Positions 23,301 through 49,813 of a DNA stretch of 64,000 bases are shown piece by piece. The translations under genes were made by a program, and so were the position numbers. A model generated the notes under the pieces. That model ran no database searches, had not been told where the DNA came from, and saw nothing but the letters and a program-made list of their open reading frames with translations. The stretch's first letter is position 1. Every line of letters starts with the position of its first letter. Origin of the DNA: an uncultured virus (IMG/VR IMGVR_UViG_3300037483_001817) (Duplodnaviria > Heunggongvirae > Uroviricota > Caudoviricetes); IMG/VR virus record IMGVR_UViG_3300037483_001817; one strand, given 5' to 3'.

Positions 23301-26300
23301 CGTTTCAACCCGTGCGACCACAGCCAGCGATCGGCCATGGTCCTCGCGACTACGCTGGTTCCCGATCACGTAGTTTGTTTCAACCCGCGCGACCACGGCC
23401 AGTGATCGCGACCTTGTAGCTCGCGCGCGATCTCGAGCAGCGTCCGCGCTATAGGCATCCACTGCACGTTGGTTTCAACCCGCGCGACCGCGACCGCAGT
23501 CGCGACCTGAATCCGCTCCGGGGGATTCTCTGGCACGCCGCGTTTCAACCCGCGCGACCGCAGCCAGCGATCGCAACTGGCTGACGTACGTCGCGTTCAC
23601 GTTGTGGGAGCTGTTTCAAGCTGCGCGATCACGGACAACGATCGCGATGACAAGCTTCCATCCAGCTTCCTGATTGGTGTTTCAACCCGCGCGACCGCGG
23701 ACAACGGCCACGACGCCGCAAATCACGATCATGGATACGCCGATCGAGCCGTTTCAACCTGCGCAACCGCAGTCAGCAATCGCGACCGGCGGCACGCCGG
23801 TCGACTGGATCGTCAATGACGTGTTTGTTTCAACCCGCGCGACCGCAGTCAGCGATCGCGACACTACTCGTCAAGGATCTCGGCTCGCCGACATGGCGGT
23901 TTCAATCCGCGCGACCGCAGCCAGCGATCGCGACGTGACAGAGCGTTCGTTTCAACCCGCGCGACCGCAGCCAGTGATCGCGACTCAAGCCCAGCTACCT
24001 CGGTCGCATGCTCGCGTTCGTTTCAACTCGCGCGACCGCAGACAGCGATCGCAGCGCTTCCGAGCGTCTCGTACGCCTCCTTCATTCGGCGGTTTTTCAA
24101 GCCCGCGCAATCACAGCCAGCTATCACGATCTGGAGGACGTTGCCTGCGAGGGAGAGACCGGTGACGTTTCAACCCGCGCGACCGCAGCCAGCGCTCGCG
24201 ACTCTCCGAGGCCGGGGAGTTTTTACTCGCGCGGCCCGCAGCCCGTGATCGCGACCCCACGCAGCCGAGGAAAGTCCACGGCCATGTCTTCGTTTCAACC
24301 CGCGCCACGTCACCGACAGCTCGTCGCGATTGCTGGCCGTGGCCGTGGTCGCGCGACTTCGCGCAGAGCTGTTTCAACCCACGCGACCGCAGACAGCGAT
24401 CGCGACTTTCCTCAGCGGCATTGCAGCTGTCGCTGGCATCGCGTTTCAACCCTCGCGACCGCAGCCAGCGATCGCGACGCGTGCGCCGGTCTCGGGTACT
24501 GGCTCTACCGGTTGGTTTCAACCTGCACGACCGCAGCCAGCGATCGCGACGGGCCATCTCGCAAACGGCGCGTCGTGACGCGTCGTCGTTTCAACCCGCG
24601 CAACCGCAGCCAGTGATCGCGACGATCTTGCGAGCTTCAGAGGTGGGTTGGCGACTTCGTTTAAACCCGCGCGACCGCAGACAGCGATCGCGACGTTCCT
24701 CGGCACCGTGCCGACGATCGATGTTCACGTGTGTGTTTGTTTGTTTCAACCCGCGCGACCGCAGACAGCGATCGCGACGCCACCTTCGATCGCGCAGACA
24801 TCGCGCATACGGTCGTTTCAACCCGCGCGACCGCAGATAGCGATCGCGACTCTTGAGCTCGCGCTCGTCGGCATCGGTGCCGCCGGGTTTCAACCCGCGC
24901 GACCGCAGACAGCGATCGCGACGTACACCTCCGCATCCACAACAGGCAGGTTTCAACCCACGCGACAGCAGACAGCAATCAGCGATCGCGACACGTCATC
25001 GAGCACTTGCCGTGGGGACGAGACCTCGTGTTTCAACCCGCGCGCCCGCAGCCAGCGGTCGCGACCTTCAACCTCAAGACACTGAGCCAGCACGCCAATC
25101 TCGTTTCAACCGCGCGACAACAGCCTGCGATAGCAGTCAGCGGTCGCGATTGTTGCCGTGCATCACGAGCAGTTTCAACCCGCGCGACCGCAGCCAGCAG
25201 TCGCGACCATCATCGGCGGCATCGTGGCGGTTGCGGGCCTCGCGTTTCAACCCACGCGACCGCAGCGGTCGCGACTTTTGTTTTCCGGCCTCCAACGTGG
25301 TGATCAGTTTCAACCCGCGCAACCGCAGCCAGCACTCGCGACACGCACCGATGATATCGGCTCGTGCTCGTTCGCGCCGGTTCAACCCGCGCGACCGCAG
25401 CCAGCGGTCGCGACCTGACCGGCCGAGATCGTAATCTCGGGAGAGATCACCTGGTTTCAACCCGCGCGACCGCAGCCAGCGGTCACGACCCGCACCATCG
25501 AGGTTCAACCCACGCGACCGCAGACAGTGATCGCGACCTCCTTCTTCGGTGGGGGCGGGGTCGGGTCGACGTTGTTTCAACCCGCGCGACCACAGACAGC
25601 GATCGCGACGCGCGTAATAGCCGCGCCCCAACTCACGTCGGGGTTTCAACCCGCGCGACCGCAAACAGCGATCGCGACTGGTACAGTCAATAGGTGTCGC
25701 TCCACGACTTCTACGTTTCAACCAGCGCGACCGCAGACGTCGATCGCGACGTGGCGCTCGGAGTCGATGAGGCTAGGATTCGCAGCGTTTCAACCCGCGC
25801 GACCGCAGACAGCGCTCGCGACTCTCGATCGCGAGTCCCTTGTTTCAACCCGCGCGACCGCAGACAACACACGCAACACGCAACACGACCTCGCCAGGAT
25901 GTTGACGCTGAGCCGTTTCAACCCGCGCGAACGCAGACAGCGATCGCGACGGAACAACAGACCGTCGGGTGCGGAGGTCGTGCTGTTTCAACCCGCGCGA
26001 CAGACAGCGATCGCGACATCCGAAGTCATCGCCGTTCTGCCGCTTGATCAGCCAGTTTCAACCCGCGCGACCGCAGACAGCGAATCGCGACTCGAGCGCG
26101 TGCACGACCTGCTCGCGTTTCAATCCGCGCGACCGCAGACAGCGATCGCGACCTCCGATTCCGATGCCCAAGCCTCGCTTGGTTTCAACCCGCGCAACCG
26201 CAGAGATCGCGACCTGCCTCACTGCGCGCCAGGATGTTATCCCGCTTGGCGTTTCAACCCAAGCGACCGCAGCCAGTGATCGCGACGATCGGCGTGGCAA

Positions 26301-29300
26301 CGGAGTTCCTCCCGCTGTTCACGTTTCAACCCGCGCGATCACAGCCAGTGGCCGAGCTGGGTACGCCCCGAGCCATGGCCAGATCCATGATGCCGGCGTT
26401 TCAACCCACGCGACAGCAGCCAGTGATCGCGACCATTAGGGCCTTCAGCATTTGAGGCGGCATGCTCGGCATTTCAACCCGCGCAACCGCAGCCAGCGAT
26501 CGCGACGACCTCGGGACCGCAGAACGTCGCACGGTTTCAACCCGCGCGACCGCAGACAGCGATCGCGACAATAGTTCTGCGGCAGGCCGCTGTCGCTGAG
26601 CTTCTTGTTTCAACCCGCGCGACCGCAGACAGCGATCGCGACAAGCCAGCACTTCGTGTGGTCCACACGCGTCGGATGTTTGTTTCAACCCGCGCGACCG
26701 CAAACAGCGATCGTGACGTTGCGCTACCGGCGCTTAACCCTTTGGACATGCCGGTTTCAACCCGCGCGACCGCAGACAGCGATCGCGATGGCGAGCCCTT
26801 CAGCACTTCAGGCGCGATGTCGCGGTTTCAACCCGCGCGACCGCAGACAGCGATCGCGACCTCTCCACCTTTCTTCAAGCTGCGCGACGCGAAGAGTTTC
26901 AACCCACGCGACCGCAGACAGCGATCGCGACTCCAGCGTGTCCAGGACGCCGAGGCCCAACGTGATGTTTGTTTCAAACCGCGCGACCGCAGACAGCGAT
27001 CGCGACCGTGGCTTTCACGCATTGTGCAGGTTGCGGCGCGTTTCAACCCGCGCGACCGCAGACAGCGATCGCGACGGCGGCAAGAAGTGGGGCACGCTTC
27101 GCTGGACCCCGGTTTCAACCCGCGCGACCCGCAGACAGCGATCACGCCTCGCGCTAGCCATCGTCTCGCGCGAAGTTATCGATCTGTTTCAACCCGCGCG
27201 ACCGCGCGACCGCAGACAGCGATCGCGACCGTCGATACCAGCGCGAGGCTACCGAGCCCGAGGACCCTCGAACACGCGCACGGCCTGTCGCGATCACTAT
27301 CTGCGATCGCGACCAGCTATTCCCGACCCTGACCTCGCGGTCGTAGGATGTTTCAACCCGCGCGACCGCAGACAGCGATCGCGACGATCCGATCTCGGCG
27401 CCAATCGAATTTACGCGTCAGGTTTCAACCCGCGCGACCCGCAGACAGCGATCGCGACCAGCTCGACGTCCGCTAGTGGGGCCAGTCCCCAACGGTTTCA
27501 ACCCGCGCGACCGCAGACAGCGATCGCGACCTCAGGGAGGAGCAGCAGGTCTGGCGCGTCGGTCATGTTTCAACCCGCGCGACCGCAGACAGCGATCGCG
27601 ACGAGCCCAGAGGCGCCATCGCCCGATGCTTCCGGTCGTTTCAACTCGCGCGACCGCAGACAGCGATCGTGACGCTGATCAGCACGACGTCGTCAGCGGT
27701 CGGGTCACTGTTTCAACCCACGCGACCGCAGACAGCGATCGCGATACTCCAGATTTGCGTGCGCAATGAGTTGGGCCGTGGGTTTCAACCCGCGCGACCG
27801 CAGACAACGATCGCGACGAGCTTCGACCTCGATCTCGCGGGTGACATGGAGTTCGTTTCAACCCGCGCGACCGCAGACAGCGATCGCGACGACCGGGTTG
27901 CAGCAGGCATCCTCTCGGTCGAGGTGGTTTCAACCCGCGCGACCGCAGACAACGATCGCGACGTGTGCGGACGCCAGTCGGGCTCGTGATAGAGACGGTT
28001 TCAACCCGCGCGACAGCAGACAGCGATCGCGACAATCCCCTGGCGCATCGGAAACGACGGCGTGCTTTTGTTTCAACCCGCGCGACCGCAGATAGCGATC
28101 GCGACAAGCTTTCACCGCCTCGCGGGGTCGGTGTTGCCCACATGTTTCAACCTGCGCGACCGCAGACAGCGATCGCGACCTGTCATGGGGGCATTCCTAG
28201 GGCTGGGAGTTTTCGAGTTTCAACCCGCGCGACCGCAGACAGCGATCGCGACACTTTGGATCGCCGACGATCCCGTAGTGCCTCTCGAGGTTTCAATCCG
28301 CGCGACCGCAGACAGCGATCGCGACGCGCTTGCCAACCATCTTCGCTGGGGTCGTGACGCTGTTTCAACCCGCGCGACCGCAGACATCGATCGCGACCTC
28401 CTGGGTTGACCCCTCGCGCGACGGCCGAGATCAAGTTTCAACCCGCGCGACCGCAGACAGCGATCGCGACGCCCCTTGATGCTCGCCCCGCCGCCGATCG
28501 CCGCATAGTTTCAACCCGCGCGACCGCAGACAGCGATCGCGACCTGGTGCGGTAAAAAAAGCTGCCACCGTCTGGAGTTGTTTCAACCCGCGCGACCGCA
28601 GACAGCGATCGCGACGTCGATGATCTCGTCGACGTACCTCTCTTCATGCGCGTTTCAACCCGCGCGACCGCAGACAGCGATCGCAACTTCCGGTCAACGC
28701 TTCCCTCGCGTAGCTCACGTCGTTTCAACCCGCGCGACCGCAGACAGCGATCGCGACGCGGACAAGTGCGTCCTTTGGGCGCCGGTTGTTTCAACCCGCG
28801 CGACCGCAGACAGCGATCACGACCCGCCGGCTGCTTCAGATACGCCATCGCGGTCGGCCAGTTTTAACCCGCGCGACCGCAGACAGCGATCGCGACCCTC
28901 TTGAGGCCGCTCCTGCGATACGAGTCCGAGGTATTTCAACCCGCGCGACCGCAGACAGCGATCGCGACACTCACTTCGACGGAGAACAAGGAGCTTCGCG
29001 AAACGTTTCAACCTGCGCGACCGCAGACAGCGATCGCGACCGGATTTGACAGAGCAGTCTCGTCGGCGTAACTCTGTTTCAACCCGCGCGACCGCAGCCA
29101 GCGATCGCGACCGTACCCAACCCCGGCGCCACGAGCTGATAACTCGTGTTTCAACCCGCGCGACCGCAGACAGCGATCGCGACTGTTGGTGTTTCGCCCG
29201 GGTCGTCGGTGAGCAGTCGCTTGTTTCAACCCGCGCGACCGCAGACAGCGATCGCGACCTGCCGCTGATCCTCGCCGGTGATACGCCTGCTATTGGTTTA

Positions 29301-32300
29301 AACCCGCGCGACAGCAGACAGCGTTCGCGACGCCGTGCCGACCAGCGCCCAGCCAAGACCTGCGTTGGTTTCAACCCGCGCGACCGCAGACAGCGATCGC
29401 GACATCACCATCGCTCTGGCCACGCCCGACGGACTCGATGTTTCAACCCGCGCGACCGCAGACAGCGATCGCGACCCGGCCGGCATGCTTTGTGGCGGAG
29501 AGCGTAGGAATCGTTTCAACCCGCGCGACCGCAGACAGCGATCGCCACCGTCCTCGACGGTCCCAACAATACACATCGGAGTTTGTTACAACCCGCGCGA
29601 CCGCAGACAGCGATCGCGACTCCGTCGATCGAGACACGGGGCTCCGAGGGAGAGTTGTTTCAACCCGCGCGACCGCAGACAGCGATCGCGACGGCGGCCG
29701 TTGGGCGCGCCTGCGGATCCGTCTGAATGTTTCAACCCGCGCGACCGCAGACAGCGATCGCGACGAGAGGGTGCTCCACGCGATGTCGTACGCCTCGTCA
29801 ACGTTTCAACCCGCGCGACCGCAGACAGCGATCGCGACCAGCCAGAGCGGGGGTCCTCGCTGCGAGCTCACCGATGTTTCAACCCGCGCGACCGCAGACA
29901 GCGATCGCGACTCGGCATGGTGACGATCTCCGTCGTTCACGACCTGTCGTTTCAACCCGCGCGACCGCAGACAGCGATCGCGACCTGGCGTTGACCGGAT
30001 GGGGAGGAGAACGTCCGACGGTTTCAACCCGCGCGACCGCAGACAGCGATCGCGACGAGCGGTCTCCGCTACGACCGGTTGCAGCATCAGGTGGTTTCAA
30101 CCCGCGCGACCGCAGACAGAGATCGCGACGGCAGTTCACGATGCGGACGTGCCCGTTCGCGAGGTTGACGTTTCAACCCGCGCGACCGCAGACAGCGATC
30201 GCGACAGCTGCGACTGCGGTCCGGTTAGAGTCACGTGGTGCTGTTTCAACCCGCGCGACCGCCGACAGTGATCGCGACTCGCCGCCTTGCGCCCCAACAT
30301 TGAGGAAATTCATGTCGTTTCAACCCGCGCGACCGCAGACAGCGATCGCGACAAGCCGTCGTTTCTTCATGTCACGGCATTACGGCCTGTTTAAACCCGC
30401 GCGACCGCAGACAGCGATCGCGACTGGAGTCGGACTTCCCGGTCGAGGGCTGGTGCCACTGTTTCAACCCGCGCGACCGCAGACAGAGAGATCGCGACGT
30501 CTTGCGTCGTCCTCATCGACGCGGTGGTGTCACAGTTTCAACCCGCGCGACCGCAGACAGCGATCGCGACCCGATATAGCGGGACATCTCAGCCGCCTCC
30601 GCTGGGGGTTTCAACCCGCGCGACCGCAGCCAGCGATCGCGACGCGGCCGTGCCCTCGGGCCGCAGGACGATCTCGACGTTTCAACCCGCGCGACCGTAG
30701 ACAGCGATCGCGACCTGGGCCAGGACTTCGCCGCCACTCTCGGTGTGAGGGTTTCAACCCGCGCGACCGCAGACAGCGATCGCAACATACGCGTGCCCAT
30801 GTAGCGAGGGGCAAGTGGGACGATTCAACCCGCGCGACCGCAGACAGCGATCGCGACCGGCCGCCAGGATCCCGCCGAGTCCGGCGTGGTAAACGTTTCA
30901 ACCCGCGCGACCGCAGACAGCGATCGCGACCGGAGCGAGACCTCGACACGGCCAGCGGCGGCGTTGTTTCAACCCGCGCGACCGCAGACAGCGATCGCGA
31001 CGGGGTCGCAACTGTCGACTGACTGATAGTGTCCGGTTTCAACCCGCGCGACCGCAGACAGCGATCGCGACTTCCGGTCGCGTCGTCGACGATCTGGGCA
31101 GCAACCCTGTTTCAACCCGCGCGACCGCAGACAGCGATCTCGGCCCGATATAGCGGGACATCTCAGCCGCCTCCGCCGGGGATTTCAACCCGCGCGACCG
31201 CAGATAGCGATCGCGACCTGCGCGCTCGACTCCGCGGCTGCACTCATCGGGCAGTTTCCACCCGCGCGACCGCAGACAGCGATCGCGACCGCCGCCAACG
31301 CGAATCACCAACGGCGTTTGCAGGCAGTTTCAACCCGCGCGACCGCAGACAGCGATCGCGACAGGCCACCAGAAGGGCCTCAAGTAGCAACTCAAGGTTG
31401 TTTCAACCCGTCGTCCGCCTCAAGCCCGAGTGGATCTGGTTTCAACCCGCGCGACCGCAGACAGCGATCGCGACGTACCCCACCCACGGCGCCGCGAGTT
31501 ACAGCCCGCGGTTTCAACCCGCGCGACCGCAGACAGCGATCGCGACGGTCTTCCGACCAGGCTCGGCGTCGCTTGGACGACGGTTTCAACCCGCGCGACC
31601 GCAGACAGCGATCGCGACCTGGAGTCGGACTTCCCGGTCGCGGGCTGGTGCCACTGTTTCAACCCGCGCGACCGCAGACAGCGATCGCGACGTCCTCCCC
31701 GTCGCGAGCTTCGTCCTCGTCGGCGGTGTTTCAACCCGCGCGACCGCAGACAGCGATCGCGACCCGTGGATGGTCCGCGCGGAGTGGCGGCGGGACTTGT
31801 TTCAACCCGCGCGACCGCAGACAGCGATCGCGACCGTTGATTCGTTGTTGCGCTGTTCGCGCTTCTGCCTGTTTCAACCCGCGCGACCGCAGACAGCGAT
31901 CGCGACGCCGTCCGTGATCTCGATTGTCTTGCTGAGCGCGTTGTTTCAACCCGCGCGACCGCAGACAGCGATCACGACGTCGTGAACTCGTGCCGTCGCA
32001 ACACACAAACGAGCTGTTTCAACCCGCGCGACCGCAGACAGCGATCGCGACGCGCAACTTGAATCAGGCGAGGGCCACGTCCCAGTCGTTTCAACCCGCG
32101 CGACCGCAGACAGCGATCGCGACAGTCTCCGCGCAAGATCGGCGGACGAGTTGAGTACGTGTTTCAACCCGCGCGACCGCAGACAGCGATCGCGACTCGC
32201 TCAACCAAGCCGCAAATGAAGCGCTGTTTCTTGGTTTCAACCCGCGCGACCGCAGACAGCGATCGCGACGGCGTCGTAGAGCGGGCGCAGGTGGGGTGCG

Positions 32301-33504
32301 GCGTTGTTTCAACCCGCGCGACCGCAGACAGCGATCGCGACCCTGCTTCGCCCACGTCGGCGCGAATGCGTCTTGATGTTTCAACCCGCGCGACCGCAGA
32401 CAGCGATCGCGACGAGCGCGTCGATACAGAGCTCAAGGCACTCGGTCTGGTTTCAACCCGCGCGACCGCAGACAGCGATCGCGACCTGCGAGGCTCACGG
32501 CGTGCCCACGATCACTGACTACGTTTCAACCCGCGCGACCGCAGACAGCGATCGCGACGTGTTCTCCGCCTGGCTCGCGAGCTTGCGCATGTTCGTTTCA
32601 ACCCGCGCGACCGCAGACAGCGATCGCGACACCTTCGAGGCCGACGCTGAGACACTGACTACACTTGTTTCAACCCGCGCGACCGCAGACAGCGATCGCG
32701 ACACCGATCGACTCATCGCGTGGGCCAGCTATCAGGGCTGGTTTCAACCTGCGCGACCGCAGACAGCGATCGCGACGTCGGCTGAACAACCAGAATCGAG
32801 CTCGGGTCCTGATGTTTCAACCCGCGCGACCGCAGACAGCGATCGCGACGACGATCAAGGCGGTGCTTCTTGCCTGGGACGTCTGGTTTCAACCCGCGCG
32901 ACCGCAGACAGCGATCGCGACCTTCCGATCGAGATCATCGGAGCGCAAGCGTGGTGGTTTCAACCCGCGCGACCGCAGACAGCGATCGCGACTCGCCGAC
33001 CGTCGGCGGGTAGCCCTCGCGCTGCTCGTTGTTTCAACCCGCGCGACCGCAGACAGCGATCGCGACCAGTTCGGATCGTCATACCAGAGCGTCCAGAGCT
33101 CGTGGTTTCAACCCGCGCGACCGCAGACAGCGATCGCGACGTGCCAAGGTACGGTCGTGGTGGCCGAGCCGGCTGCTGTTTCAACCCGCGCGACCGCAGA
33201 CAGCGATCGCGACTCGGCGCGACATCGGCGACCGCGCACCGTCCGCGGCGTTTCAACCCGCGCGACCGCAGACAGCGATCGCGACGGCGGCGCGTACCAC
33301 AAGGTCACGTGGGACGAGTGGCAGTTTCAACCCGCGCGACCGCAGACAGCGATCGCGACCTCACTGGGGCAGCGAGGACAGTATTCGGTGGTATTTGTTT
33401 CAACCCGCGCGACCGCAGACAGCGATCGCGACACGTGCGATCGGTGCAGCTCACGAGCGCCACCCGTTGTTTCAACCCGCGCGACCGCAGACAGCGATCG
33501 CGAC
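20327..33504 (-). CRISPR. large type I-C-like CRISPR array, roughly 180 repeats (estimate)
   Basis: 36-nt repeat GTCGCGATCGCTGTCTGCGGTCGCGCGGGTTGAAAC (minus strand) with 9-bp stem and 3' GAAAC; ~34-38 nt spacers; perfect near 33504, degenerate toward 20327; partial repeat at 20302-20319. Confidence 0.99.
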
Positions 33505-33681
33505 AGCAGTGCCTAAAAAAGGCATCAGGCCGTGCACTTCCAACGTAGAAGCGCACGACCTGCATTGTTCAATCATGAACGACTATGCAATTGTCAGAGA
33601 CCTCCGAGATTCCCAACGAATCTCGAACCGTAGCGTGGCGAGCGGCTCAGCCGCTTGCGGTCAGCACGCCACCGCTCGCGG
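33505..33681 (-). promoter_or_regulatory. CRISPR leader
   Basis: Non-coding and AT-richer, between the cas7 stop and the best-conserved repeat; contains GCGAGCGG/CCGCTCGC inverted repeats. Confidence 0.75.
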
Positions 33682-34764
33682 TCAGCTCACCGCGTCGTCG
33701 ACCGCCTCATCGCCCGCGTCGTCGCTCGGCGGCGGAGGCGCGTGCAGACCGAGGTGGTCGTAGGCAACCTTGCGGTTGAGCGAGAGCACCGAACCCTCGC
33801 GCACGTAGATGTCCACCCCGTGAACCATGGTGAGCCGGTTGCGGATCTTCCGCTTGAGGCACACGTCGGTCACGAAGCACTTGTGCGTGTACGAGTTCAC
33901 GCGCGGGTGGTTCGCGTTGTCTGGATCACCGTTGGGGTTGGATCGGATCGCCTCCCAGATCAGCCACGCGTCCCAGCGATTCCCGATGACGGCGTCCTCT
34001 GCCAAGCCGGCCATCACGTGAGCGGCCGACATCTCCGGGTGCAGATCGATCACGAAGATCTCGACGTTGGGCGTGGGCGATGCGCCGACAACAACGTCGA
34101 AGTCACTATAGCTCTGCGGATCCGGCACCCTCTGCTGGATGTTGATCAGCTCGCGCAGGAGGGCCGGCGAGCAGTCGCCGCGCTTGGACGCGTGCTTGGC
34201 GATGATGAGCTTGCGCACCGCCAGCATGGGACGTGTCGCCGACGCGTCGTTGTCGAAGATGTGGAGGCAGTCGTCGTAGAACCGCCCGAGATCGCGGTTG
34301 GTCATGCCCGACTTGTCCGCCCAGAACGGATTGACGCTGATTGGCGTGAAGAAGAGAGCGTAGTCCACGATCCACTTGGACCCCATGGTCTGGTTCGCGT
34401 CCTGGTTGTCCGCCAGCGTCTCGTTGGCGACCGCGACGCGCGTGATCGGCACCTCCAGGATGTGCGGAATGTTCACCGAGTTGGTGATCTCGAGCTGGAT
34501 CGGGCCGTGGAGCGAACCCGCGTCGTAGCCTCCCTCGCCCTTACCTGCGAGTACACCGCCGAACAGCCTCAGATCCGGATAGATCTGAACGAGGTGTCCC
34601 TGGGCGGCGGCCGACATCCTGTCGCGATCTTCGTAGCCGACCTTCGCCTTGGCGCCGTTGCCGTTCTTGCCGTTGCCGTTGCCGTTGCCATTCTTGCCGT
34701 TGCCGTTCTTGTCGTGGTTCGGACTCTTCGCTGGCTTCTTCATTTTCTTGGTTCTCTCTTTCAC
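33682..34764 (-). CDS. cas7: type I-C Cas7 (Csd2), circularly permuted; ATG at 34743 is an alternative start
   Basis: DLRLFG, GPIQL, ITRVAV, TMGSK, FDNDASA.R and RKLII.KH precede NPNGDPD..N.PR..VTDVCLKRKIRN. Confidence 0.93.
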   Translation of the reverse strand: MKERTKKMKKPAKSPNHDKNGNGKNGNGNGNGKNGNGAKAKVGYEDRDRMSAAAQGHLVQIYPDLRLFGGVLAGKGEGGYDAGSLHGPIQLEITNSVNIPHILEVPITRVAVANETLADNQDANQTMGSKWIVDYALFFTPISVNPFWADKSGMTNRDLGRFYDDCLHIFDNDASATRPMLAVRKLIIAKHASKRGDCSPALLRELINIQQRVPDPQSYSDFDVVVGASPTPNVEIFVIDLHPEMSAAHVMAGLAEDAVIGNRWDAWLIWEAIRSNPNGDPDNANHPRVNSYTHKCFVTDVCLKRKIRNRLTMVHGVDIYVREGSVLSLNRKVAYDHLGLHAPPPPSDDAGDEAVDDAVS

Positions 34765-34806
34765 CTTTTCGTTTTCGTCGTCACGTGTCTTATCTCGGTG
34801 TTGTTG

Positions 34807-35331
34807 TCAGTCGTCGTTGTCCTCCTCGTCCTGGTCCCCGTCGTCGGACAAGGACTGCTTCGGGACTTCGACCTCTTGCGCGCGAGCGCGAGCTGCCGTC
34901 CGCTTGCGGTACTCTTCCCACAACCACCCCGTGTAGTTGTTGAAGCCGATCCAGAACAGCATCTGCTCTTCCTTGGTGAGCCGCTGTGGGATTTGCGCCA
35001 GGCTCAGCTCTGCTTCGTCGGTCTCCGTGAGCGGTCCCTGGACACCGAGACGCGTCACCAGGGCGTTCATGCGCTGCTGGGACAGCATCGCCATGCCCTG
35101 CCGCCGCTTGCTGTTGAGCTTCTTGATGTGCTTGGTGTGCAGCGTCAGCACGTCGGGAAGGACGTTGTACGGGCTCTGCACGATCTCGGTTCGCGACAAG
35201 CTCGAATGTTGGGGATGGTTGATCGCGATGTTCTGGACGTAGTTCGCCTCGGCCATGATGCAGCCGATAACCATCGGGATCGGCATCACGATGAGGTTCT
35301 GACTCTTGAGAGGATCTGCGTGAATCGTCAC
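34807..35331 (-). CDS. cas11: internally translated Cas11 small subunit (predicted)
   Basis: In-frame GTG at 35331 preceded by AAAGGA, just after LLKLDLIR; matches the known I-C internal start arrangement. Confidence 0.6.
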   Translation of the reverse strand: MTIHADPLKSQNLIVMPIPMVIGCIMAEANYVQNIAINHPQHSSLSRTEIVQSPYNVLPDVLTLHTKHIKKLNSKRRQGMAMLSQQRMNALVTRLGVQGPLTETDEAELSLAQIPQRLTKEEQMLFWIGFNNYTGWLWEEYRKRTAARARAQEVEVPKQSLSDDGDQDEEDNDD

Positions 35332-36864
35332 TGGTATTCCTTTTCGGATGAGATCGAGTTTGAGCAGACTGCACCGAACCGGCAGCAGCCGCCGCCATTG
35401 CTTGCGGCCGTCGTTGTCGCCGGGATACGTGTTGCAGCGCTTCAGCGCTGCCGCCGCAATCTCCACGGGAACGCGCTCACCCTGGAGAATGCAGCGCAGC
35501 ATCCCGTCGACGGTGCTGGACGGAAACCGCTCGTCCATGCGCGTGCGCAGTGCCGCCAGGAGCTGCGAAAGCGGTCGAGGCCGGCTACTGCTAGGGATCG
35601 GCAAGGTCATGTCGTCCATGTACTGCTGGATGCGCCGCCGCAGATCGCCGATCGTGCCGCTGACCGCATTCCGGTACACGACGCGGCCGTTGTCGGAGAT
35701 CAGCAGGGAGTGGAAGTAGTCCTCGCGGAACAGCGGCATGGTGCGGCCCGTACGATGAACCGCGAGCAATTCCTCCACGACCTTCTCGTCGGCCTCGACC
35801 GCCAACAGCTCGCGCACGGACGCCTCGTCCGCCACTTCGATCCGCAGGAACGTCTCGGCCGGCTCAATACTCGGTCCCGCGATCAGCGCTGTCACGGCCC
35901 CGCGGACCGGCATCTCCGTATGCGGATCGCCGGTCCAGATGAGAAACACTGCGTCGCCAGGTTGAGGTTTGCCCGAGCTATTGAGGTACACGCCGCCGCG
36001 CGGCTTGTAGCGCGCGCCGATCGTTCCGTCGGCGCGCTTGAACGGAATGGCCACGCGCTCTAGCAACAAATTCGCAGCGGCGGCCACGCCTTCGGCGACG
36101 TCTTGGCTGACAGGGGCGTTCGCTCCCTGTAGCAGACCGAAGGAACACCAGGCCGGCTGGTTGTTCGACGAGAGAGCCGAGCTGCCGCCCTTCGCTCCGG
36201 GCAACCCCTTGATCGGCGGCTGCGTGTTGCACAGAGGACCGCGCCGACCCGTGACAATGCACGTGATCATCTCTCCGCCAGCGCCGCCTGACTGGATCGG
36301 ACGGTGCGCGCGGATCCACTCCTTCACGCGAGGGCTCTCGTAGACCGGTACCAGCGCGTTGTTCGCGCGAACGACGACCGTGACCCACTCCGAGCCCGTC
36401 AGCGGCTTCCCGTCGCTCCAGCCGAGGCACTTGACGGCAGCCTCCGCCGGAGTCCCATACGTGCCGTCCGCGAGGTCGTCGACGAACTGCGACAGGGCCT
36501 CGGCGTAGGGGTCGCGCGTATCCACGGCCATCTGCCGTAGGTGATCTCGATAGACGCCTTGCAGCTCGAGTCCGCGCTGCGCGACCTTCGCGGCTCTCGC
36601 CGCCGTCGTCGCTTTCGCATCGGTCTTGTGGGCGGTGTAGCACGCGACAGATTCCACGACGGCACTGACCGTGTTGCCTGACGTACGCCCCGATTGCATG
36701 GGCGCACGCAGTGTCACGTAGGGCTCGGTACCCGACGTGATGCGTTGACCAGCGAGCCAGCGACCTTTCAGATCGATGACGATCTGATAGTCCACTCGGC
36801 GATCCGCGAAACCTGGATCCACCAGGTTCTTGCGCTCCGCGTAGCTGAAGAGGTTGTGGTGCAT
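34807..36864 (-). CDS. cas8c: type I-C Cas8c (Csd1)
   Basis: RTSG, CIVTG..P.IKG, SSNN..SFG..QG.NAPVS, EEQ..F.IGF; lies between cas5 and cas7. Confidence 0.92.
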   Translation of the reverse strand: MHHNLFSYAERKNLVDPGFADRRVDYQIVIDLKGRWLAGQRITSGTEPYVTLRAPMQSGRTSGNTVSAVVESVACYTAHKTDAKATTAARAAKVAQRGLELQGVYRDHLRQMAVDTRDPYAEALSQFVDDLADGTYGTPAEAAVKCLGWSDGKPLTGSEWVTVVVRANNALVPVYESPRVKEWIRAHRPIQSGGAGGEMITCIVTGRRGPLCNTQPPIKGLPGAKGGSSALSSNNQPAWCSFGLLQGANAPVSQDVAEGVAAAANLLLERVAIPFKRADGTIGARYKPRGGVYLNSSGKPQPGDAVFLIWTGDPHTEMPVRGAVTALIAGPSIEPAETFLRIEVADEASVRELLAVEADEKVVEELLAVHRTGRTMPLFREDYFHSLLISDNGRVVYRNAVSGTIGDLRRRIQQYMDDMTLPIPSSSRPRPLSQLLAALRTRMDERFPSSTVDGMLRCILQGERVPVEIAAAALKRCNTYPGDNDGRKQWRRLLPVRCSLLKLDLIRKGIPVTIHADPLKSQNLIVMPIPMVIGCIMAEANYVQNIAINHPQHSSLSRTEIVQSPYNVLPDVLTLHTKHIKKLNSKRRQGMAMLSQQRMNALVTRLGVQGPLTETDEAELSLAQIPQRLTKEEQMLFWIGFNNYTGWLWEEYRKRTAARARAQEVEVPKQSLSDDGDQDEEDNDD

Positions 36865-36873
36865 GTCTCGCTC

Positions 36874-37506
36874 CTACTGTTGAGTTGCCGCCACGACGGC
36901 CTGGTAGGAGGGAATGCGGACGGAGCCGTTCACGAGGCGCGCGTCGAACATCAGCGGCTCGGGAGGCGACTTCTTGAAGTTTCGTCCGTACAACATCGGA
37001 CCGAGGGGGCGATCGACACCCTGCTCGATCGTCTGGTAGCTCTCGGGCGCCTCCATGAGGTCGCAGACGAACGGGAACATTCCGAAGCACGGCGTATGGT
37101 GGAGCTGCCCGCGCCTCAGGTAGCGCTCGAACATCTCCGTGAATGCGGTGACATTGTGCTGTGCCTTGTCATCCAGCTCGAAATAGGCGGTGAACACGTA
37201 GTCGACGTCGTACAGACCGACCGTGTTGCGCTGCGTGCGTACGTCTTCCACGTTGAAGGGCTGGCCCGAGGAGCCGGTGCACGTCACTTCGTTCGTACGC
37301 ATGTTGAAGTAACGGATCGGGCGCAGGACCTCGATCAACGTCGGCCTCCAGTGGAGTCCAGGGTGCCAAAGCACCGCTTCGAAGATGCCCACGATCGCCG
37401 ACGGAGTCGGCACGTCGTACGTCAGCCGCTCGACGCGGCACAGCGGTCGGGTAATGACCGCGCGCTCGGCCTTTGCCCGAATCTTGAAGTCTTTACTGCG
37501 TTGCAT
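36874..37506 (-). CDS. cas5: type I-C Cas5 (Cas5c/Cas5d)
   Basis: TRP..RVER.TYDVPTPSA..GI.EA..W.P, VL.PIR, NEV, QR, GQ..H.P.FG; GAGGAGG RBS. Confidence 0.93.
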   Translation of the reverse strand: MQRSKDFKIRAKAERAVITRPLCRVERLTYDVPTPSAIVGIFEAVLWHPGLHWRPTLIEVLRPIRYFNMRTNEVTCTGSSGQPFNVEDVRTQRNTVGLYDVDYVFTAYFELDDKAQHNVTAFTEMFERYLRRGQLHHTPCFGMFPFVCDLMEAPESYQTIEQGVDRPLGPMLYGRNFKKSPPEPLMFDARLVNGSVRIPSYQAVVAATQQ

Positions 37507-37559
37507 TTCTAGTCCTCCTCTTTGTGTGTTCGTTCTTGGCCGGTCCAGTTGCCGTCCAA

Positions 37560-37796
37560 TCAGGGTCGGTAGTTCATGGCCGGATTGCTGGACAACGTTC
37601 TCGGCACGTATCCGGCATTTCGCAAGGCTGTTTCAAGATCGTCCGAGAATTCGGAATCTACGGACCGCCGTCTCTGGGCGTATTCCCACAGCAAATCCTG
37701 CGCAGTCGGATCTTTGACACTGAGCGGGACCTTACCGCGTGGACAAGTCGGGTATTTGTCACTCTGAAACTCCCCATCGATCAGATGTGCGCTCAC
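37560..37796 (-). CDS. small hypothetical protein between cas3 and cas5
   Basis: AAGGAG RBS; co-directional with the cas operon. Confidence 0.65.
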   Translation of the reverse strand: MSAHLIDGEFQSDKYPTCPRGKVPLSVKDPTAQDLLWEYAQRRRSVDSEFSDDLETALRNAGYVPRTLSSNPAMNYRP

Positions 37797-37827
37797 TTTA
37801 GTTCTCCTTGGGTACTAACCAATTCGT

Positions 37828-39927
37828 TCAAGCGTCGAGTAGGCCGAGCTGGTCGTAGCTTCGGGTGCCGCGCAGGTAGACGACGGCATCCGCCACCCAA
37901 CGCGCGCGGTCTTGTTGCAGGTATCGATCGCGCTCCTCGACCGCAACCCAGATCACGAAGTCCATGAGCTGCCGCAGTAGCAACTTGTCGGGTCCATGTG
38001 CGGCCAGGCGTTTGATCAACGCCTTGACAGATTCCTGCCCCTCGCGCGGCGGTGCGGGAACCACGATGGGCACCAAGCCGGCATCGCCGAGCGCCACGTC
38101 GCCCGGCACGGGATGCCTCCCACCGACGCGCAGGGTCTTGCCGGCGAGGGTGCGAAAGCGCAGTTGCTCGCGATCGCGCTGTAGATCCTCCGCCCACGTA
38201 CAACGACCGCGGCTGAGCTTCAGGTCTCGATCGTAGCTGTCCCACGTCATCTTCGCGGTGAGCTGGAGAGGGCCGTCCAGCAATAGCAGCTGAGTCACGT
38301 GTGCTTCGAGCGAGAGCTCAGCCGCCGGGAAAACGCGGTACGCACCGGCACGATGATCACCGGCGTCTGCACGCTGGCTCGTAACGGTGATCGATGGCAG
38401 GTCGGACATCTCGCGCCAGACAACCCCGAAGGTCACGTCGCGCGTCTCGCCCACGGAATCCGTGGCGAGGCGCAGCGGCCTCCCCTCGCGCTTGTGATCG
38501 TGCACCACGCGGAGCACCTCGCGTCTGTCTCTCGGACACATGCGCGACGACAGATAGAACCAACGCCGCGTTCCAGCAACGTCCGCAAACGAGCGCATCG
38601 ATCGTGGGCTGTTCCACACGACGAGACAATCTGGGTGCGTACGTGTCTTCAGGCTGCGGAGTAGCTTCCGGGGCGTCGGAACCTTGGCGCGCGGCTTCGG
38701 CCACGTCGCCGCAGTCCTGGGTTCAAGGCGCCCGAACGCCTCCGGCATCCCGATTTCTCTGGCGCCCTCGACGATCGGATAAGGGACGGTCGAGACGAAC
38801 GTGACGGTCGATCGAAAGTGCGCAACCAAGGTCCTCAAGGTGTCGACGACAACGGGCGCGATCGGTGCGGGCAGTCGCCACGCGTCTTCCACCAAGACCA
38901 TGGCGCACGCGATTCGATGCAGGCGACGGCACGAGGCTGGACGGTTGTCGAACAAGAGACCGACAACGTCGCGCAGCGTCGTGGCGATAACCGGCGCATC
39001 CCAGTCTTCGATCGCGACGGGGATACCGCGGTTTCGCGAATAAAAGGCAGACGGCACGACGATCGCTTCACCAAGGATTCCTCGCAGCTCCTCCACGCGC
39101 TGCTCAAGCGCGGCCTGTGTCGCGCAGACAATGACGACGCGCTGTAGGCCGTGCCGGACGGCATGCCCCACCGCATAGCAAGCCAAGCTCCGCGCGTCGA
39201 CGATGCTCGACGGCGCCGAGAGCTGATACCAGCCCAAAGGTTCGGTGGAGATCTGCTCACACGTGTGCCAGAAAGCATCACGGAGGCGCGTCAGCTCGTC
39301 GCGCTTAGTCCAATGCCGTGGAGGATGCGCGAGCAAGCGTTCGTGTAAGCTCGCTAGATTCACAGGCTGCGGAGTGGGTTGCGGCGTGTCCGACACGCTG
39401 GCTTCCCATGCTTGTGCTTCCGCACGATCGGCATCGACGTGCGCCGAGAAGATGAGGCGCGTGAAGAGCTCGCGGTGCGCGGTGCCAGAGAAGCTGCGCG
39501 ATGCAATGCGATGCCCGAGAATCCCCGGCGCGATGTCTCGTAAGCAGTGGCTGTAGGTCGCGCCTTCCGTGCAGATGCCAGGCAGCTCGCTCAGATCAGG
39601 AATTCCTGCGTGCGTTCCTGCGATCGCGAGAGCGACCAACTCTCGAACCTCTGCGGGCAGCCAGCGGCACGCGTACCACGCGCCGACGAACGAATGGTTC
39701 ACGCGATCGTTCGCGAACGGAACACGCACGTGTTTCTGAAACTCGACAGCGGCCTTGCCTAGGTCGGACCACAGTGCGGCGACATGGGCTTCAGGTGCGC
39801 AGCCAAAGAGCGCGGCCAGATTACGCGCACGCGCTGCGGTCGCTCGAATGTCCTCATCTAACGATCGCACGTAGCGACCCGCAGATCGCGCTATCAGCTG
39901 TGTCGTCTTCGCCATGCCCTTGTTCAC
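37828..39927 (-). CDS. cas3: Cas3-like protein with degenerate HD nuclease and SF2 helicase motifs
   Basis: SDLGKA..FQ, NHS..GA, FSAHVDAD, EDWDAPVIATT, CRRLHRIA, LSSRMCP retained in order; catalytic motifs substituted. Confidence 0.88.
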   Translation of the reverse strand: MNKGMAKTTQLIARSAGRYVRSLDEDIRATAARARNLAALFGCAPEAHVAALWSDLGKAAVEFQKHVRVPFANDRVNHSFVGAWYACRWLPAEVRELVALAIAGTHAGIPDLSELPGICTEGATYSHCLRDIAPGILGHRIASRSFSGTAHRELFTRLIFSAHVDADRAEAQAWEASVSDTPQPTPQPVNLASLHERLLAHPPRHWTKRDELTRLRDAFWHTCEQISTEPLGWYQLSAPSSIVDARSLACYAVGHAVRHGLQRVVIVCATQAALEQRVEELRGILGEAIVVPSAFYSRNRGIPVAIEDWDAPVIATTLRDVVGLLFDNRPASCRRLHRIACAMVLVEDAWRLPAPIAPVVVDTLRTLVAHFRSTVTFVSTVPYPIVEGAREIGMPEAFGRLEPRTAATWPKPRAKVPTPRKLLRSLKTRTHPDCLVVWNSPRSMRSFADVAGTRRWFYLSSRMCPRDRREVLRVVHDHKREGRPLRLATDSVGETRDVTFGVVWREMSDLPSITVTSQRADAGDHRAGAYRVFPAAELSLEAHVTQLLLLDGPLQLTAKMTWDSYDRDLKLSRGRCTWAEDLQRDREQLRFRTLAGKTLRVGGRHPVPGDVALGDAGLVPIVVPAPPREGQESVKALIKRLAAHGPDKLLLRQLMDFVIWVAVEERDRYLQQDRARWVADAVVYLRGTRSYDQLGLLDA

Positions 39928-40030
39928 CTAGACGTCTGCACGCTTGGTCATAGCTAACGCGACGTCTAACAGCGTGCGCATCCTTGCGTCAAGGTGTTTC
40001 ACATGTACATGCGTTTGACATGCGAGGCAT

Positions 40031-40240
40031 GTGTCCGTAATGTGTGCTGTGCCTACGCGATCCCCCAGGATTAAAACCAAGAAGCGAGACACGACCGTGT
40101 TCCTTCAGGTGAAGGTCAGCCGTCGCGCGGCCGACTTGCTTCGCAAGCGGGCGAAGCGCGCGTTACGCTCGCAGGCAAGTTACTTGCGGGCTGTTATCTA
40201 CCGAGACCTCGGCATTTTCAGCGAAATAGACAGCCGCTGA
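40031..40240 (+). CDS. small ribbon-helix-helix-like DNA-binding protein, divergent from cas3
   Basis: VFLQVKVS..L...A....RSQASYLR.VI pattern. Confidence 0.55.
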   Translation: MSVMCAVPTRSPRIKTKKRDTTVFLQVKVSRRAADLLRKRAKRALRSQASYLRAVIYRDLGIFSEIDSR

Positions 40241-40288
40241 TCCGAGAACAGCGCCGCTGTCAGGCCGCACGGGCAGAATAGATCTCCC

Positions 40289-40663
40289 ATGCCCAAGAGC
40301 CAGCGCCGTACGTTCGTTGTCAAAGATCCGATCTCGCCTGCGGACGCCAACTCGCCAGCAGAGCGCAAAAAGAAACAGCGATTCGTCAACGTACTCATAC
40401 AGGCGATTACAGCTGCCACAGAGCATGGCCCTAGCCCCAAAGCGTGGCATGTCGGCGTCGAAATGCGGTCGCCGGTCGAGGTTCGCGATCGCTTCTTCGT
40501 GACGTTCGACGTCGAGGGAAAACGGGTGAGCGCCATCGGACCCATGTCGGCGGACGTCGTGGACCACCTGCTCTGGTTCGTCGAGAGCGGACTGCAAGCA
40601 GATTTGCCAGGAGCCAAGGCCGGCTCGTGCACGCGAAAGATCACAAACCTGTCAAACCATTGA
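40289..40663 (+). CDS. hypothetical protein
   Basis: Follows the RHH-like gene. Confidence 0.5.
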   Translation: MPKSQRRTFVVKDPISPADANSPAERKKKQRFVNVLIQAITAATEHGPSPKAWHVGVEMRSPVEVRDRFFVTFDVEGKRVSAIGPMSADVVDHLLWFVESGLQADLPGAKAGSCTRKITNLSNH

Positions 40664-40684
40664 CGCGCCGTGGTTCGAGCTACG

Positions 40685-41110
40685 TCACGCGGGACATGTC
40701 TGCCGCGCGCCGGTGAGATACCGCAGCAAGTCGACGCGGCCTCCATAGTTCACGAGGATGATCGGTGCGTCCGCGAGATAGGACGCTGCCAACCGATGAT
40801 GGCCGTCGAGCAGGATGGGCACGGGGTAGATCCGTCCGTGGTCGCACTCGTTGTCGACCTCGATCGCGTCCAGCTTCTCACCAGTCAGCAGGCGCTCGTA
40901 GAAGTGCCTGATCCGGCCATAGTCCCACGCGCGTGTCGGCTGCTTTAGGGTCCTCTCCGCATCGCTCACGTAGCCTGGCTGCGCGCGATACCGGAGGAGC
41001 TTCGTGATCGTCATCCCGCGCATGGGAAGATTCCGCTCGGGCCACGCATAGAGCGACCACAGTCGCTCGACGAGCACCTTGCTGGGAGCCGTCACGACGC
41101 GTTGCTCCAA
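40685..41110 (-). CDS. ParB-N-like domain protein
   Basis: LDAIEV..ILLDGHHRLAA. Confidence 0.6.
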   Translation of the reverse strand: MEQRVVTAPSKVLVERLWSLYAWPERNLPMRGMTITKLLRYRAQPGYVSDAERTLKQPTRAWDYGRIRHFYERLLTGEKLDAIEVDNECDHGRIYPVPILLDGHHRLAASYLADAPIILVNYGGRVDLLRYLTGARQTCPA

Positions 41111-41616
41111 CGCACGTACTCACGAAGCTCGACGATCAGCGCGCGTTGCTCAGGCGTGAGCGATCGCTCCAGCTGAAGGCGTTGATCCGGCGTCAGCCGG
41201 TGCCACAGGGACCAAAAGTAGCGTTCTCGGGTCATGTCTTCTCGCTGGGGTGTTCACGTCTTCGTAGCGCGGGGTGGAACACCCACAGCCGCTCGACGAT
41301 CGCCTTGCTGGGAGCACTTACGGGCTCTTCACGCCGAAGATGTTCTGCCAATTCTTGACGAGCAGATCAATTCATCGCCAATGGGGCGGAAAACCATTTC
41401 GTCGCCGGTTACGTTCACACTGGCAGCCTTTGCTGAGGTGGTACGCGCCGTGCTCGCTGCGCTGACTCCAACGCCGACCGCACATGCCGCAGGGATGGTT
41501 GTCGCAGCAACACTCGAAGTAGTAGTGCCTCGACGTCGGGCAAATGCCGTTCGCGGGAAGGACACTACGTGCGGTCCGCTTGGAGACGACGTGTGTTGCG
41601 AGCGCTTCGCGGCGCT

Positions 41617-45582: not shown

Positions 45583-45705
45583 GGTCACCTTACGGATGGA
45601 TCCTGAGATCCTGGGCGATGCGGCTATGAACTCGTCCACCTTCTTGATCGCGGTCGTACATCGCGAAACCGATCACACCCTGCGTCGCTTGCTGCACGCG
45701 CCCTA

Positions 45706-45972
45706 TCATCGCGCAGGTGCATCTGGTTTTATAGTGGTGTGCTCGGGCGGCCCAATGTCCGTGCCGTACTTGCGCACTGGTACGAACGGAATGAAGGTGA
45801 AGAGCCGTCCGTCGCGCTGCGGCAGGCCGAACTTCGTCGCCGTCGAATCGACGACGACCCCTTGGGCCTGCACCTCGACGATGCGGTGAGCGATCCGCTT
45901 GTTCCCCCAGGTCACGACGTCGCCGACCTGGAACTTCTTGCCGAGCTTCTTCTGGATCGCGCGACGGGTCAT
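45706..45972 (-). CDS. hypothetical protein
   Basis: ATGA coupling; FQVGDVV. Confidence 0.55.
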   Translation of the reverse strand: MTRRAIQKKLGKKFQVGDVVTWGNKRIAHRIVEVQAQGVVVDSTATKFGLPQRDGRLFTFIPFVPVRKYGTDIGPPEHTTIKPDAPAR

Positions 45973-48678: not shown

Positions 48679-48747
48679 CGGCCGAACCTAACAGTCCACG
48701 CACTTCATTTCCAGCACTTCACATACGGTTGCATAACCCTCAAAGAT

Positions 48748-49743: not shown

Positions 49744-49813
49744 GCCCCAGCCTACCAGCCTACTTGCGAGAACCACTATTCAATCAAGTGCATGAAGTAG
49801 CCGAAATCAGGGC

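Follow-up and report, generated by a model that had tools for sequence, protein, structure and literature searches.

CRISPR-Cas systems of type I are defined by the shredding of DNA by Cas3, and the question raised by the locus studied here is what a complete Cas3 can do once the residues for that chemistry have been replaced. The locus lies on a 64,000-nucleotide stretch of DNA from an uncultured virus of the Caudoviricetes (IMG/VR record IMGVR_UViG_3300037483_001817), hereafter called the window, which is part of a contig of about 289 kb. Its cas operon begins with the gene dcas3, and the product, dCas3, is a real, conserved pseudo-Cas3 heading a derived type I-C system.

37828..39927, minus strand: dcas3, full-length type I-C Cas3 homologue with HD, RecA1, RecA2 and C-terminal domains (CTD), in which the ATPase motifs and four of the seven key HD residues are replaced

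The minus-strand frame at 37828-39927 is open over 699 codons, in agreement with the sequence-only reading, a preliminary inspection of this DNA that had described a full-length Cas3 with substituted catalytic motifs. The likelier start is probably the ATG at 39915, giving a form of 695 residues, which is the representative (P0002) of the dcas3 protein cluster. A phmmer search against the Protein Data Bank (PDB) matched the type I-C Cas3 of Neisseria lactamica (8zns_A, E 6e-23) and 8g9u_P (E 1.1e-20), and the alignment to type I-C Cas3 covered residues 23-112 and 153-521 of dCas3. The Pfam scan assigned no family at E ≤1e-2 (0.01), helicase families included, and against NCBIfam the only match was cas3_HD with 41.4 bits, just below its cut-off of 43.45 (E 1.5e-10). 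An AlphaFold2 model made from a 115-row alignment reached a pLDDT of 91.4 and a pTM of 0.92. When the model was searched with Foldseek, the best match was 8zns (E 6.5e-32, TMq 0.81), followed by 8g9u_P and then by type I-E Cas3; the identity with 8zns across the structural alignment was about 20%. Since canonical homologues in the alignment guide the model, it shows compatibility with the Cas3 fold and is no independent proof of it. Taken as a whole, dcas3 is a genuine type I-C Cas3 homologue with the entire four-domain fold.

The substitutions listed in the sequence-only reading were all recovered in the phmmer alignment to PDB Cas3. In the HD domain, the first metal-binding His is absent (LQKHL reads LDEDI, His to Asp), HDLGK has become SDLGK (HD to SD) and GHHAG has become GTHAG (HH to TH). 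In the helicase, PSSIVDA stands in place of the Walker A sequence PTGGGKT, EDAW in place of the Walker B sequence DEAQ, STVPY in place of TATQP (motif III) and VTSQRAD in place of QAAGRCN (motif VI; dCas3 reads VTSQRADA). The structural motifs WDAP..TT, CRRLHRI and LSSRMCP are retained, as had been stated. An alignment with active Cas3s, proposed earlier as a check, was made with 104 representatives of canonical I-C Cas3, drawn from the 3,835 matches (E ≤1e-3) of an exhaustive HMMER search. Among the 124 columns at least 85% conserved in these proteins, dCas3 (P0001) keeps 60 and changes 64, and every catalytic one is among the changed. A Gly-rich Walker A ending in K-T and a DExQ box are found in all 42 canonical rows listed (P0015, P0019-P0059). 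Chance does not explain the pattern. The changed columns of dCas3 include T240S, G241S, G243V, K244D and T245A in Walker A, D347E, E348D and Q350W in Walker B, T379S, A380T, T381V and Q382P in motif III, and Q515V, G518Q, N521D and R522A in motif VI. In the HD domain they are H14R, H26D, H54S and H105T (dCas3 numbering), of which Arg14, at the position of the N-terminal His (H8 of N. lactamica Cas3, NlaCas3), adds to the changes noted before. Conserved residues that dCas3 keeps are D55, H78, H106, S161, D165 and D167, as well as W309-D310-P312, T316-T317, C333-R334-H337, R519 and several CTD residues.

The accessible text of Kim et al. (PMC11417383) names H8, H25, H52, D53, H118, H119 and S192 as key for the NlaCas3 nuclease. 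Single alanine mutants lose activity there, D53A and H118A only partly on double-stranded DNA (dsDNA); H25A and H52A each abolished activity, and the Walker B mutant D392A was impaired. By alignment, the seven nuclease positions correspond to R14, D26, S54, D55, T105, H106 and S161 of dCas3, and D392 corresponds to E347. The HD metal-ligand set is incomplete, with four of the seven replaced (H8R, H25D, H52S and H118T in Nla numbering). Because no Walker A Gly, Lys or Thr is left, EDAW is found for DExQ and motifs III and VI are replaced, it is as safe as a sequence allows to regard canonical ATP binding and hydrolysis as impossible for dCas3. The nuclease activity is likely lost as well, though this is less than certain, since Asp, Ser and Thr are still capable of ligating metal. 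A remodelled metal site may exist, since the case for nuclease loss is built on alanine mutants of a homologue and the replacing residues here are Asp, Ser, Thr and Arg.

The sequence-only reading had also proposed that selection maintains the fold in the absence of ATPase and nuclease activity. The constraint on the fold and the loss of the ATPase were borne out, and the nuclease part leans on the homologue's alanine mutants. The evidence for selection on the fold is threefold: the substitutions are fixed in the relatives that cover them, the relative rate resembles that of active Cas3, and the frame has been kept against neutral drift. Besides the cluster of dCas3 itself, the 14 proteins returned by a word-indexed search comprise 11 clusters with identities of 70-83%, P0014 (47-48%) and a canonical Cas3 (27%). 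Every one of the 11 close metagenomic relatives has the Walker A remnant PSS[IV][IV]DA, together with [ED]D[AV]W, ST[VIL] and QRADAG. LDEDI or MDEDI, WSDLGK and AGTHAG (including SDLGK and GTHAG) occur in 7 of the 7 close relatives with an N-terminus; the other four are short at the N-terminus, probably because their contigs end there. The longest invariant runs in this dead clade are the remodelled motifs (AALWSDLGK, AIAGTHAG, LHRIACA, HFRSTVTFVST, QRADAG and DAVVYL), and the CTD, residues 531-699, is 50% invariant and as conserved as the core. Full-length open frames of 674-714 residues were found in seven relatives. P0014 has 705 residues (48% identity), P0018 has 660 (32%) and P0017, without its N-terminus, has 608 (38%).

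For a comparison of rates, dCas3, Cas8c and Cas7 proteins were paired as one locus when recorded on contigs of equal size, so that common origin is inferred for each pair. Identities to the window proteins were as follows.

Contig of 7169 bp: dCas3 83%, Cas8c 90%
Contig of 359440 bp: dCas3 80%, Cas8c 85%
Contig of 10975 bp: dCas3 79%, Cas8c 88%
Contig of 8823 bp: dCas3 76%, Cas8c 67%
Contig of 17218 bp: dCas3 80%, Cas8c 71%, Cas7 69%
Contig of 18447 bp: dCas3 73%, Cas8c 79%, Cas7 88%
Contig of 18543 bp: dCas3 70%, Cas8c 80%, Cas7 86%
Contig of 61582 bp: dCas3 81% (partial), Cas8c 90%

Across these eight contigs the identity of dCas3 (70-83%) tracks that of Cas8c (67-90%). The control consisted of 56 canonical locus pairs with Cas8c identity of at least 55%, in which active Cas3 showed a like relation, with Cas3/Cas8c/Cas7 identities of, for example, 74/78/88, 71/76/82, 69/76/90 and 61/74/87. 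As the relation of dCas3 to Cas8c matches that of the canonical pairs, dCas3 is, relative to Cascade, no less constrained than active Cas3s. The operon was also covered by contigs of four studies (soil, permafrost and another habitat), among which the nucleotide divergence was 10-18% for dcas3, 3-5% for cas7 and 4-14% for cas8c. At 10-18% divergence, a neutral frame of 699 codons would escape stops with a probability of 1e-3 to 6e-6, calculated with uniform substitutions and with indels ignored. Among 40 of the 1,007 nucleotide differences, listed by support, 15 fall in dcas3, and 8 of these few are at codon position 3. The loci of the relatives were not found in viral contigs or among the metagenome contig matches listed, and the search of genome contigs for dcas3 loci returned only canonical Cas3 at 23-30% identity. 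Judged from these sequence comparisons, dcas3 is a conserved gene under constraint, not a decaying one.

The order in which the motifs were lost was read from a maximum-likelihood (ML) tree of 64 rows, made up of 13 focal rows and every second of the remaining 102 alignment rows (LG+G4, SH-aLRT). The dead clade, with eight rows in this tree, is monophyletic (support 100) and nested with P0014 and P0017 (99) and then with P0018 (100); the group so formed is sister to the canonical P0019 (95). In P0018, at 32% identity, HD, HH and the first His are intact; the sequence PHGASKI stands at Walker A, motifs III and VI have degenerated and the H8 position is gapped. P0014 likewise keeps HD, HH and the first His and has no Walker A, and its equivalent of H8 is already Arg. 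P0017, with its N-terminus missing, keeps HH and has no Walker A. These three proteins combine nuclease motifs with a degenerate helicase; decay of the motor thus came before loss of the nuclease ligands. On the reconstructed tree this is the history of a single lineage, with dCas3 at its tip.

A further change concerns the contact with Cascade. In canonical I-C Cas3, according to the accessible text of Hu et al. (bioRxiv 10.1101/2023.08.05.552134), an anchor loop with F437 at its tip inserts into a pocket of the Cas8 N-terminal domain, and a recruit loop of Cas8 holds the HD domain of Cas3. The anchor loop, taken from motif III (TATQP) to the V-R-E-I/REIG segment, has about 8 residues in the dCas3 lineage and about 18-25 in canonical proteins, the alignment being approximate in this region. 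Its aromatic tip is usual in canonical rows and missing in the dCas3 lineage, and the loop is missing throughout that lineage, P0014, P0017 and P0018 included. Docking on Cascade, if kept, therefore relies on other contacts or on a co-evolved surface. A complex prediction with dCas3 1-535 and Cas8c 1-420, run without controls, gave a score of 0.00.

The partners of dCas3 are encoded downstream on the same strand, in the order dcas3, 78-residue open reading frame (ORF), cas5c, cas8c, cas7, leader and CRISPR array.

39928..40684, strand not applicable: stretch upstream of dcas3 with little or no coding content, presumed operon control region
37560..37796, minus strand: 78-residue ORF with a GGAG ribosome-binding site, within a 325-nt segment between dcas3 and cas5c
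36874..37506, minus strand: cas5c, 210 residues, predicted endoribonuclease subunit for precursor CRISPR RNA (TIGR01876, 90 bits against a cut-off of 85; 8g9t_N, E 7e-31)
34807..36864, minus strand: cas8c/csd1, 685 residues, very divergent large subunit (PF09709, E 2.7e-48)
33682..34764, minus strand: cas7, 360 residues, circularly permuted, with canonical residues 113-282 first and 3-92 last
33505..33681, minus strand: leader, 177 nt from the cas7 stop to the first repeat, with a 17-bp stem-loop and T-run at 33562-33526
20327..33504, minus strand: CRISPR array, with a 36-nt repeat in at least 169 copies (about 180) and spacers mostly of 35-37 nt

By family matches, a type I-C effector set of cas5c, cas8c/csd1 and cas7/csd2 without cas6 is present. 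Cas8c reached 165 bits with PF09709 (cut-off 27), its best PDB match having an E of 3.7e-9, and Cas7 reached 196 bits with PF05107 (cut-off 33) and 181.5 bits with TIGR02589 (cut-off 182.25). No cas6 was matched by Pfam among the ORFs scanned. Within the 64-kb window, neither cas1, cas2 or cas4 nor a second cas3 was found by tblastn with the plus-strand ORFs of 80 canonical I-C loci or by Pfam, and no sigma-70 consensus promoter was found in 33300-41300.

The topology of Cas7 is non-canonical and, by alignment, circularly permuted. Its residues 62-231 match residues 113-282 of the Cas7 of D. vulgaris (7kha_B), and residues 259-344 match 7kha_B residues 3-92, including the signature NPNGDPD...TDVCLKRKIRN. 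The same permutation was seen in BLASTP against a Myxococcus Cas7 and in NCBIfam matches in two stretches, and its junction is colinear in contigs of three other studies. When the query and its best 120 Cas7 homologues were compared, the signature lay at about 76% of the length in nine proteins, the window's own and eight relatives (59-97% identity), and in the N-terminal half in the other 112. All nine permuted proteins have a basic, NGNG-rich (NGNGK) low-complexity N-tail, of variable length in the relatives, and an acidic C-tail. An AlphaFold2 model of the permuted Cas7 from nine sequences was unusable (pLDDT 48.8). The literature searched, supplements excepted, held no account of a permuted Cas7; the one match, PMC3150331, concerns the HD domain of Cas10.

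The ungapped scan of the array counted 169 repeats, and gaps of two or three periods imply about a dozen further copies with indels. The hairpin and ...TTGAAAC 3' handle expected of type I-C repeats are found in the 36-nt repeat, whose RNA hairpin (-17 kcal/mol, z -2.9) is followed by a 10-nt tail ending in GGUUGAAAC. Exact repeats make up 27 of the 29 nearest cas7, and copies at the far end carry up to nine mismatches; therefore the array grows at the cas-proximal end. The 143 clean spacers have a GC content of 63.7%, like the window, and include no exact duplicates and five near-duplicate pairs. One such pair is 22170-22205 with 31764-31798 (35 of 35 nt). Spacer targets were not found in phages or plasmids, nor, for two spacer seeds, in viral contigs, and comparison of the spacers with the window itself and with the retrieved loci gave only short chance matches. 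The repeat was not found in viral contigs. The GC-rich 17-bp stem-loop and T-run of the leader lie about 20 nt before the first repeat and could terminate the cas operon or take part, as a leader element, in spacer integration. Long plus-strand ORFs at 20149-33548 were rejected as genes and are artefacts of the array. A plateau of negative GC-skew and positive AT-skew at 20000-34000 is a by-product of the repeat composition. The trailer end of the array is adjoined by a small minus-strand ORF (19782-20042) with a Fis-type HTH_8 domain (E 6.8e-7).

A dead Cas3, a rearranged Cas7 and a very long array together suggest CRISPR targeting without DNA shredding. The reading that we tentatively favour, at somewhat less than even weight, is that dCas3 serves as a non-enzymatic partner of Cascade and gives binding-only interference. 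The pseudoenzyme would dock on its own co-diverged Cascade after R-loop formation and would grip the displaced strand through elements of the single-stranded DNA (ssDNA) path (WDAP..TT, LFDNRPASCRRLHRIA); a strand-holding role is proposed because these elements are among the kept and invariant parts. The locked R-loop would form a stable roadblock to transcription and replication that replaces shredding, and a jumbo-phage-like element could use such type IV-like, binding-only interference against its competitors or its host. An adaptation module elsewhere on the element or in the host would supply new spacers. A wider proposal, which we regard as possible and hold with more reserve, is an undescribed derived I-C subtype on jumbo-phage-like elements, characterized by a permuted Cas7, a pseudo-Cas3 that arose in two steps, no anchor-loop contact, non-cutting R-loop locking and arrays of about 180 spacers.

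Several observations weigh against binding-only interference by a constrained pseudoenzyme. The exchanges of His for Asp, Ser and Thr leave residues that can still ligate metal at invariant positions, which fits a working remodelled site too. With the Cas8-binding anchor loop missing, any docking would use an altered interface. The nucleotide divergence of dcas3 (10-18%) exceeds that of cas7 (3-5%), its GC content at third codon positions (GC3) is 0.73 against 0.81-0.87 for cas5/7/8, and the pairing of loci through contigs of equal size is our inference. A growing array of about 180 spacers is expected of effective immunity, binding alone may be weak against lytic phages, and a spacer target was not found in phages, plasmids, the window or, with the two seeds, viral contigs. 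The relative P0011 has a 37-residue insertion in a RecA1 loop and W to G in WDAP, and its first 110 residues are missing; this copy may be damaged or mis-called.

The foremost alternative, unlikely in our estimate, is a natural nickase. A remodelled HD pocket (Asp26, Asp55, His78, His106 and Asp165/167) would bind another metal and nick the displaced strand without translocation. No invariant runs in the N-terminal part are longer than the remnants of the HD motifs, AALWSDLGK and AIAGTHAG, Asp55, His78, His106, Ser161 and Asp165/167 are retained, and the accessible text of PMC11417383 reports that dsDNA cutting by NlaCas3 was impaired only partly by D53A and H118A. Furthermore, the sisters P0014 and P0018 keep most or all HD ligands (the equivalents of H25, H52 and H118) together with a dead helicase, so motorless nicking is a plausible earlier state of the lineage. 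In dCas3 itself, however, four of the seven key residues have changed together (H8R, H25D, H52S and H118T), two of them at positions where alanine (H25A, H52A) abolishes NlaCas3 activity in the same source, and Arg14 may occupy the metal site by analogy with other pseudoenzymes.

Doubtful as well, and ranked next, is an adaptor role, in which the dead Cas3 would mark the R-loop and recruit another factor, either an effector nuclease whose gene lies elsewhere or, for the capture of spacers near targets, Cas1-Cas2(-Cas4). Such a role would suit an array that is growing though cas1, cas2 and cas4 were not found in the 64 kb, the five near-duplicate pairs among the 143 clean spacers, which suggest repeated sampling of the same targets, and the CTD (residues 531-699), which with 50% invariant positions is as conserved as the core. 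However, no conserved partner candidate lies beside dcas3, the 78-residue ORF is not present in relatives, and Pfam found no nuclease-domain protein in the window. Priming in types I-E and I-F depends on Cas3 translocation, and the same requirement in type I systems speaks against recruitment for spacer capture here.

That dcas3 is a relic, a slowly decaying passenger of a Cascade that works alone, either as CRISPR interference (CRISPRi) or with a host Cas3 in trans, is improbable. The lower GC3 of dcas3, the change of half of the family-conserved positions, the lost anchor loop and the apparently damaged P0011 would agree with decay. Against it, frames of 674-714 residues are open in seven relatives and frames are open also in P0014 (48%), P0018 (32%) and P0017, the last without its N-terminus; neutral retention has a probability of at most 1e-3 per lineage, the replacement residues are fixed and invariant, and the relative rate equals that of active Cas3. 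Least probable of all is a decoy that competes with host Cas3 for the host Cascade or absorbs anti-Cas3 inhibitors (anti-CRISPR or anti-anti-CRISPR): the context is phage-like, and Cas-derived dominant-negative inhibitors are expected yet rarely seen according to the accessible text of a review (PMC11656645), but this role is disfavoured because a co-diverged Cascade and an array of its own accompany dCas3 in every matched contig and because dCas3 is without the anchor loop and conserved aromatic tip needed to hold a canonical Cas8c.

The proposed binding-only system shares features with several known ones. With canonical I-C Cas3 (8ZNS, 8G9U; PMC11417383), dCas3 has in common the four-domain fold and its order, the operon position ahead of cas5c-cas8c-cas7, and WDAP..TT, the CRKLH region, LSxxMC, D53, H119, S192 and W354 (Nla numbering); unlike it, dCas3 has no Walker A, DExQ, motifs III and VI, H8/H25/H52/H118 or anchor loop with a Phe tip. 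Type IV-A systems pair a Csf Cascade with CasDinG for nuclease-free interference on plasmids. As described in the accessible parts of PMC11656645, PMC11519345 and 10.1101/2023.06.23.546257, they likewise combine a class 1 effector on a mobile element, no adjacent adaptation genes and a helicase-family accessory protein with no evident nuclease. However, the DinG of type IV-A is an active helicase of another family, whereas here that part is taken by a Cas3 without activity, the Cascade derives from type I-C and is not composed of Csf1-3 with DinG, and the array is far longer. Type IV-A identity is ruled out, as the effectors match I-C families and the accessory protein is Cas3-derived. The R-loop lock would also resemble the logic of nuclease-free type IV-A and of Cas12m/Cas12k (PMC11656645, accessible text).

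The accessible text of Al-Shayeb et al. (2020, PMC7162821) describes a type I-C variant, carried by two huge phages, which has a helicase in place of Cas3 and no Cas1/Cas2. The present system, compared with theirs by description only, is likewise probably phage-borne, with Cas5d-like processing and no Cas1/Cas2 in the window. In contrast, the phage arrays of that text have a median of six repeats, against at least 169 here, and the window has no Cas12j-sized ORF. The accessible text of Altae-Tran (2023, PMC10910872) describes an incomplete I-C system with a Cas8-Cas5 fusion and no Cas3, and HNH Cascades with cas3 remnants. Like the type I CRISPR-associated transposons (CASTs), the Cas8-Cas5 fusion I-C and the Cas8-HNH or Cas5-HNH Cascades, as far as these sources describe them, the present system is a derived type I effector without processive shredding. 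Unlike the CASTs, the fusion I-C and the HNH Cascades, in which cas3 is deleted or replaced by HNH, it retains a whole Cas3 from which the chemistry alone appears removed. Type I CAST identity was ruled out, with no Tn7/Mu genes by Pfam and no TnsC or TniQ among the 72 ORFs scanned. Engineered nCas3/dCas3 (PMC8753164, accessible text) show that a helicase-dead Cas3 is still recruited, and P0014, P0017 and P0018 look like natural counterparts; unlike those laboratory point mutants, the present proteins form a natural lineage with dozens of fixed changes.

No description of a conserved full-length inactive Cas3 was found in the literature searched, supplements excepted. Known nuclease-free derivatives of type I delete or replace cas3, whereas here the protein is retained and intermediates are extant. 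If binding-only interference is true, the lineage would have passed from DNA shredding to CRISPR by binding alone along an independent path, similar to that of type IV, with its intermediates preserved, and it would offer a natural test of the non-catalytic share of Cas3 in R-loop locking, strand capture or recruitment. Programmable binders or nickases could then be drawn from the natural dCas3/nCas3 series. Combined with the permuted Cas7 and the exceptionally long array on a phage-like element, this lineage would point to an unclassified I-C-derived subtype.

The element itself is likely a jumbo phage or a similar large element. The longest contig with a record of dCas3 measures 288,627 bp, and one relative lies on a contig of 359,440 bp; in 12 of 12 among the matches listed, the best phage matches of the R2K protein belong to genomes of 206-469 kb. 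The 64-kb window holds no structural gene, no tRNA and no Rfam family. Among its flanking ORFs, 9 of 58 had a Pfam family and 12 of 62 a PHROG, and the recognisable genes are ParB-like, tyrosine integrase, PAPS-reductase-like, 5'-nucleotidase, R2K ATP-grasp, 2OG-Fe(II) oxygenase and HAD-SAK. The Atlas clusters nearest two local ORFs are mostly viral and are leads only. The Pfam scan of the window found no nuclease-domain protein, no HNH insert and no Tn7/Mu genes; transposase, TnsC and TniQ families were lacking among the 72 ORFs scanned, and the tyrosine integrase at 48748-49776 is the sole recombinase. This integrase lies in a cluster at 44995-52511 with HAD-SAK (PF18143), a ClpX-type zinc finger, R2K ATP-grasp and 2OG-Fe(II) oxygenase.

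The 325-nt segment with the 78-residue ORF is skipped in contigs of two other studies, where 37507/37508 is joined directly to 37833. Neither Pfam nor PHROGs assigned this ORF to a family, and the Atlas proteins that resemble it, which are leads only, are for the most part hypothetical and viral; a regulator or an anti-CRISPR-like insert is a possible identity. Upstream of dcas3, the minus-strand ORF 40685-41110 (141 residues) has a weak match to phrog_8426 (E 0.008), no Pfam family and the motif LLDGHHRL, which we take to be reminiscent of ParB/Srx-like domains; its Atlas neighbours are mostly viral, with ParB_N on only 11% of one cluster. Finally, a 150-bp tandem duplication (two copies, 92% matches) is located at 46719-47021, in the minus-strand ORF 46364-47047.

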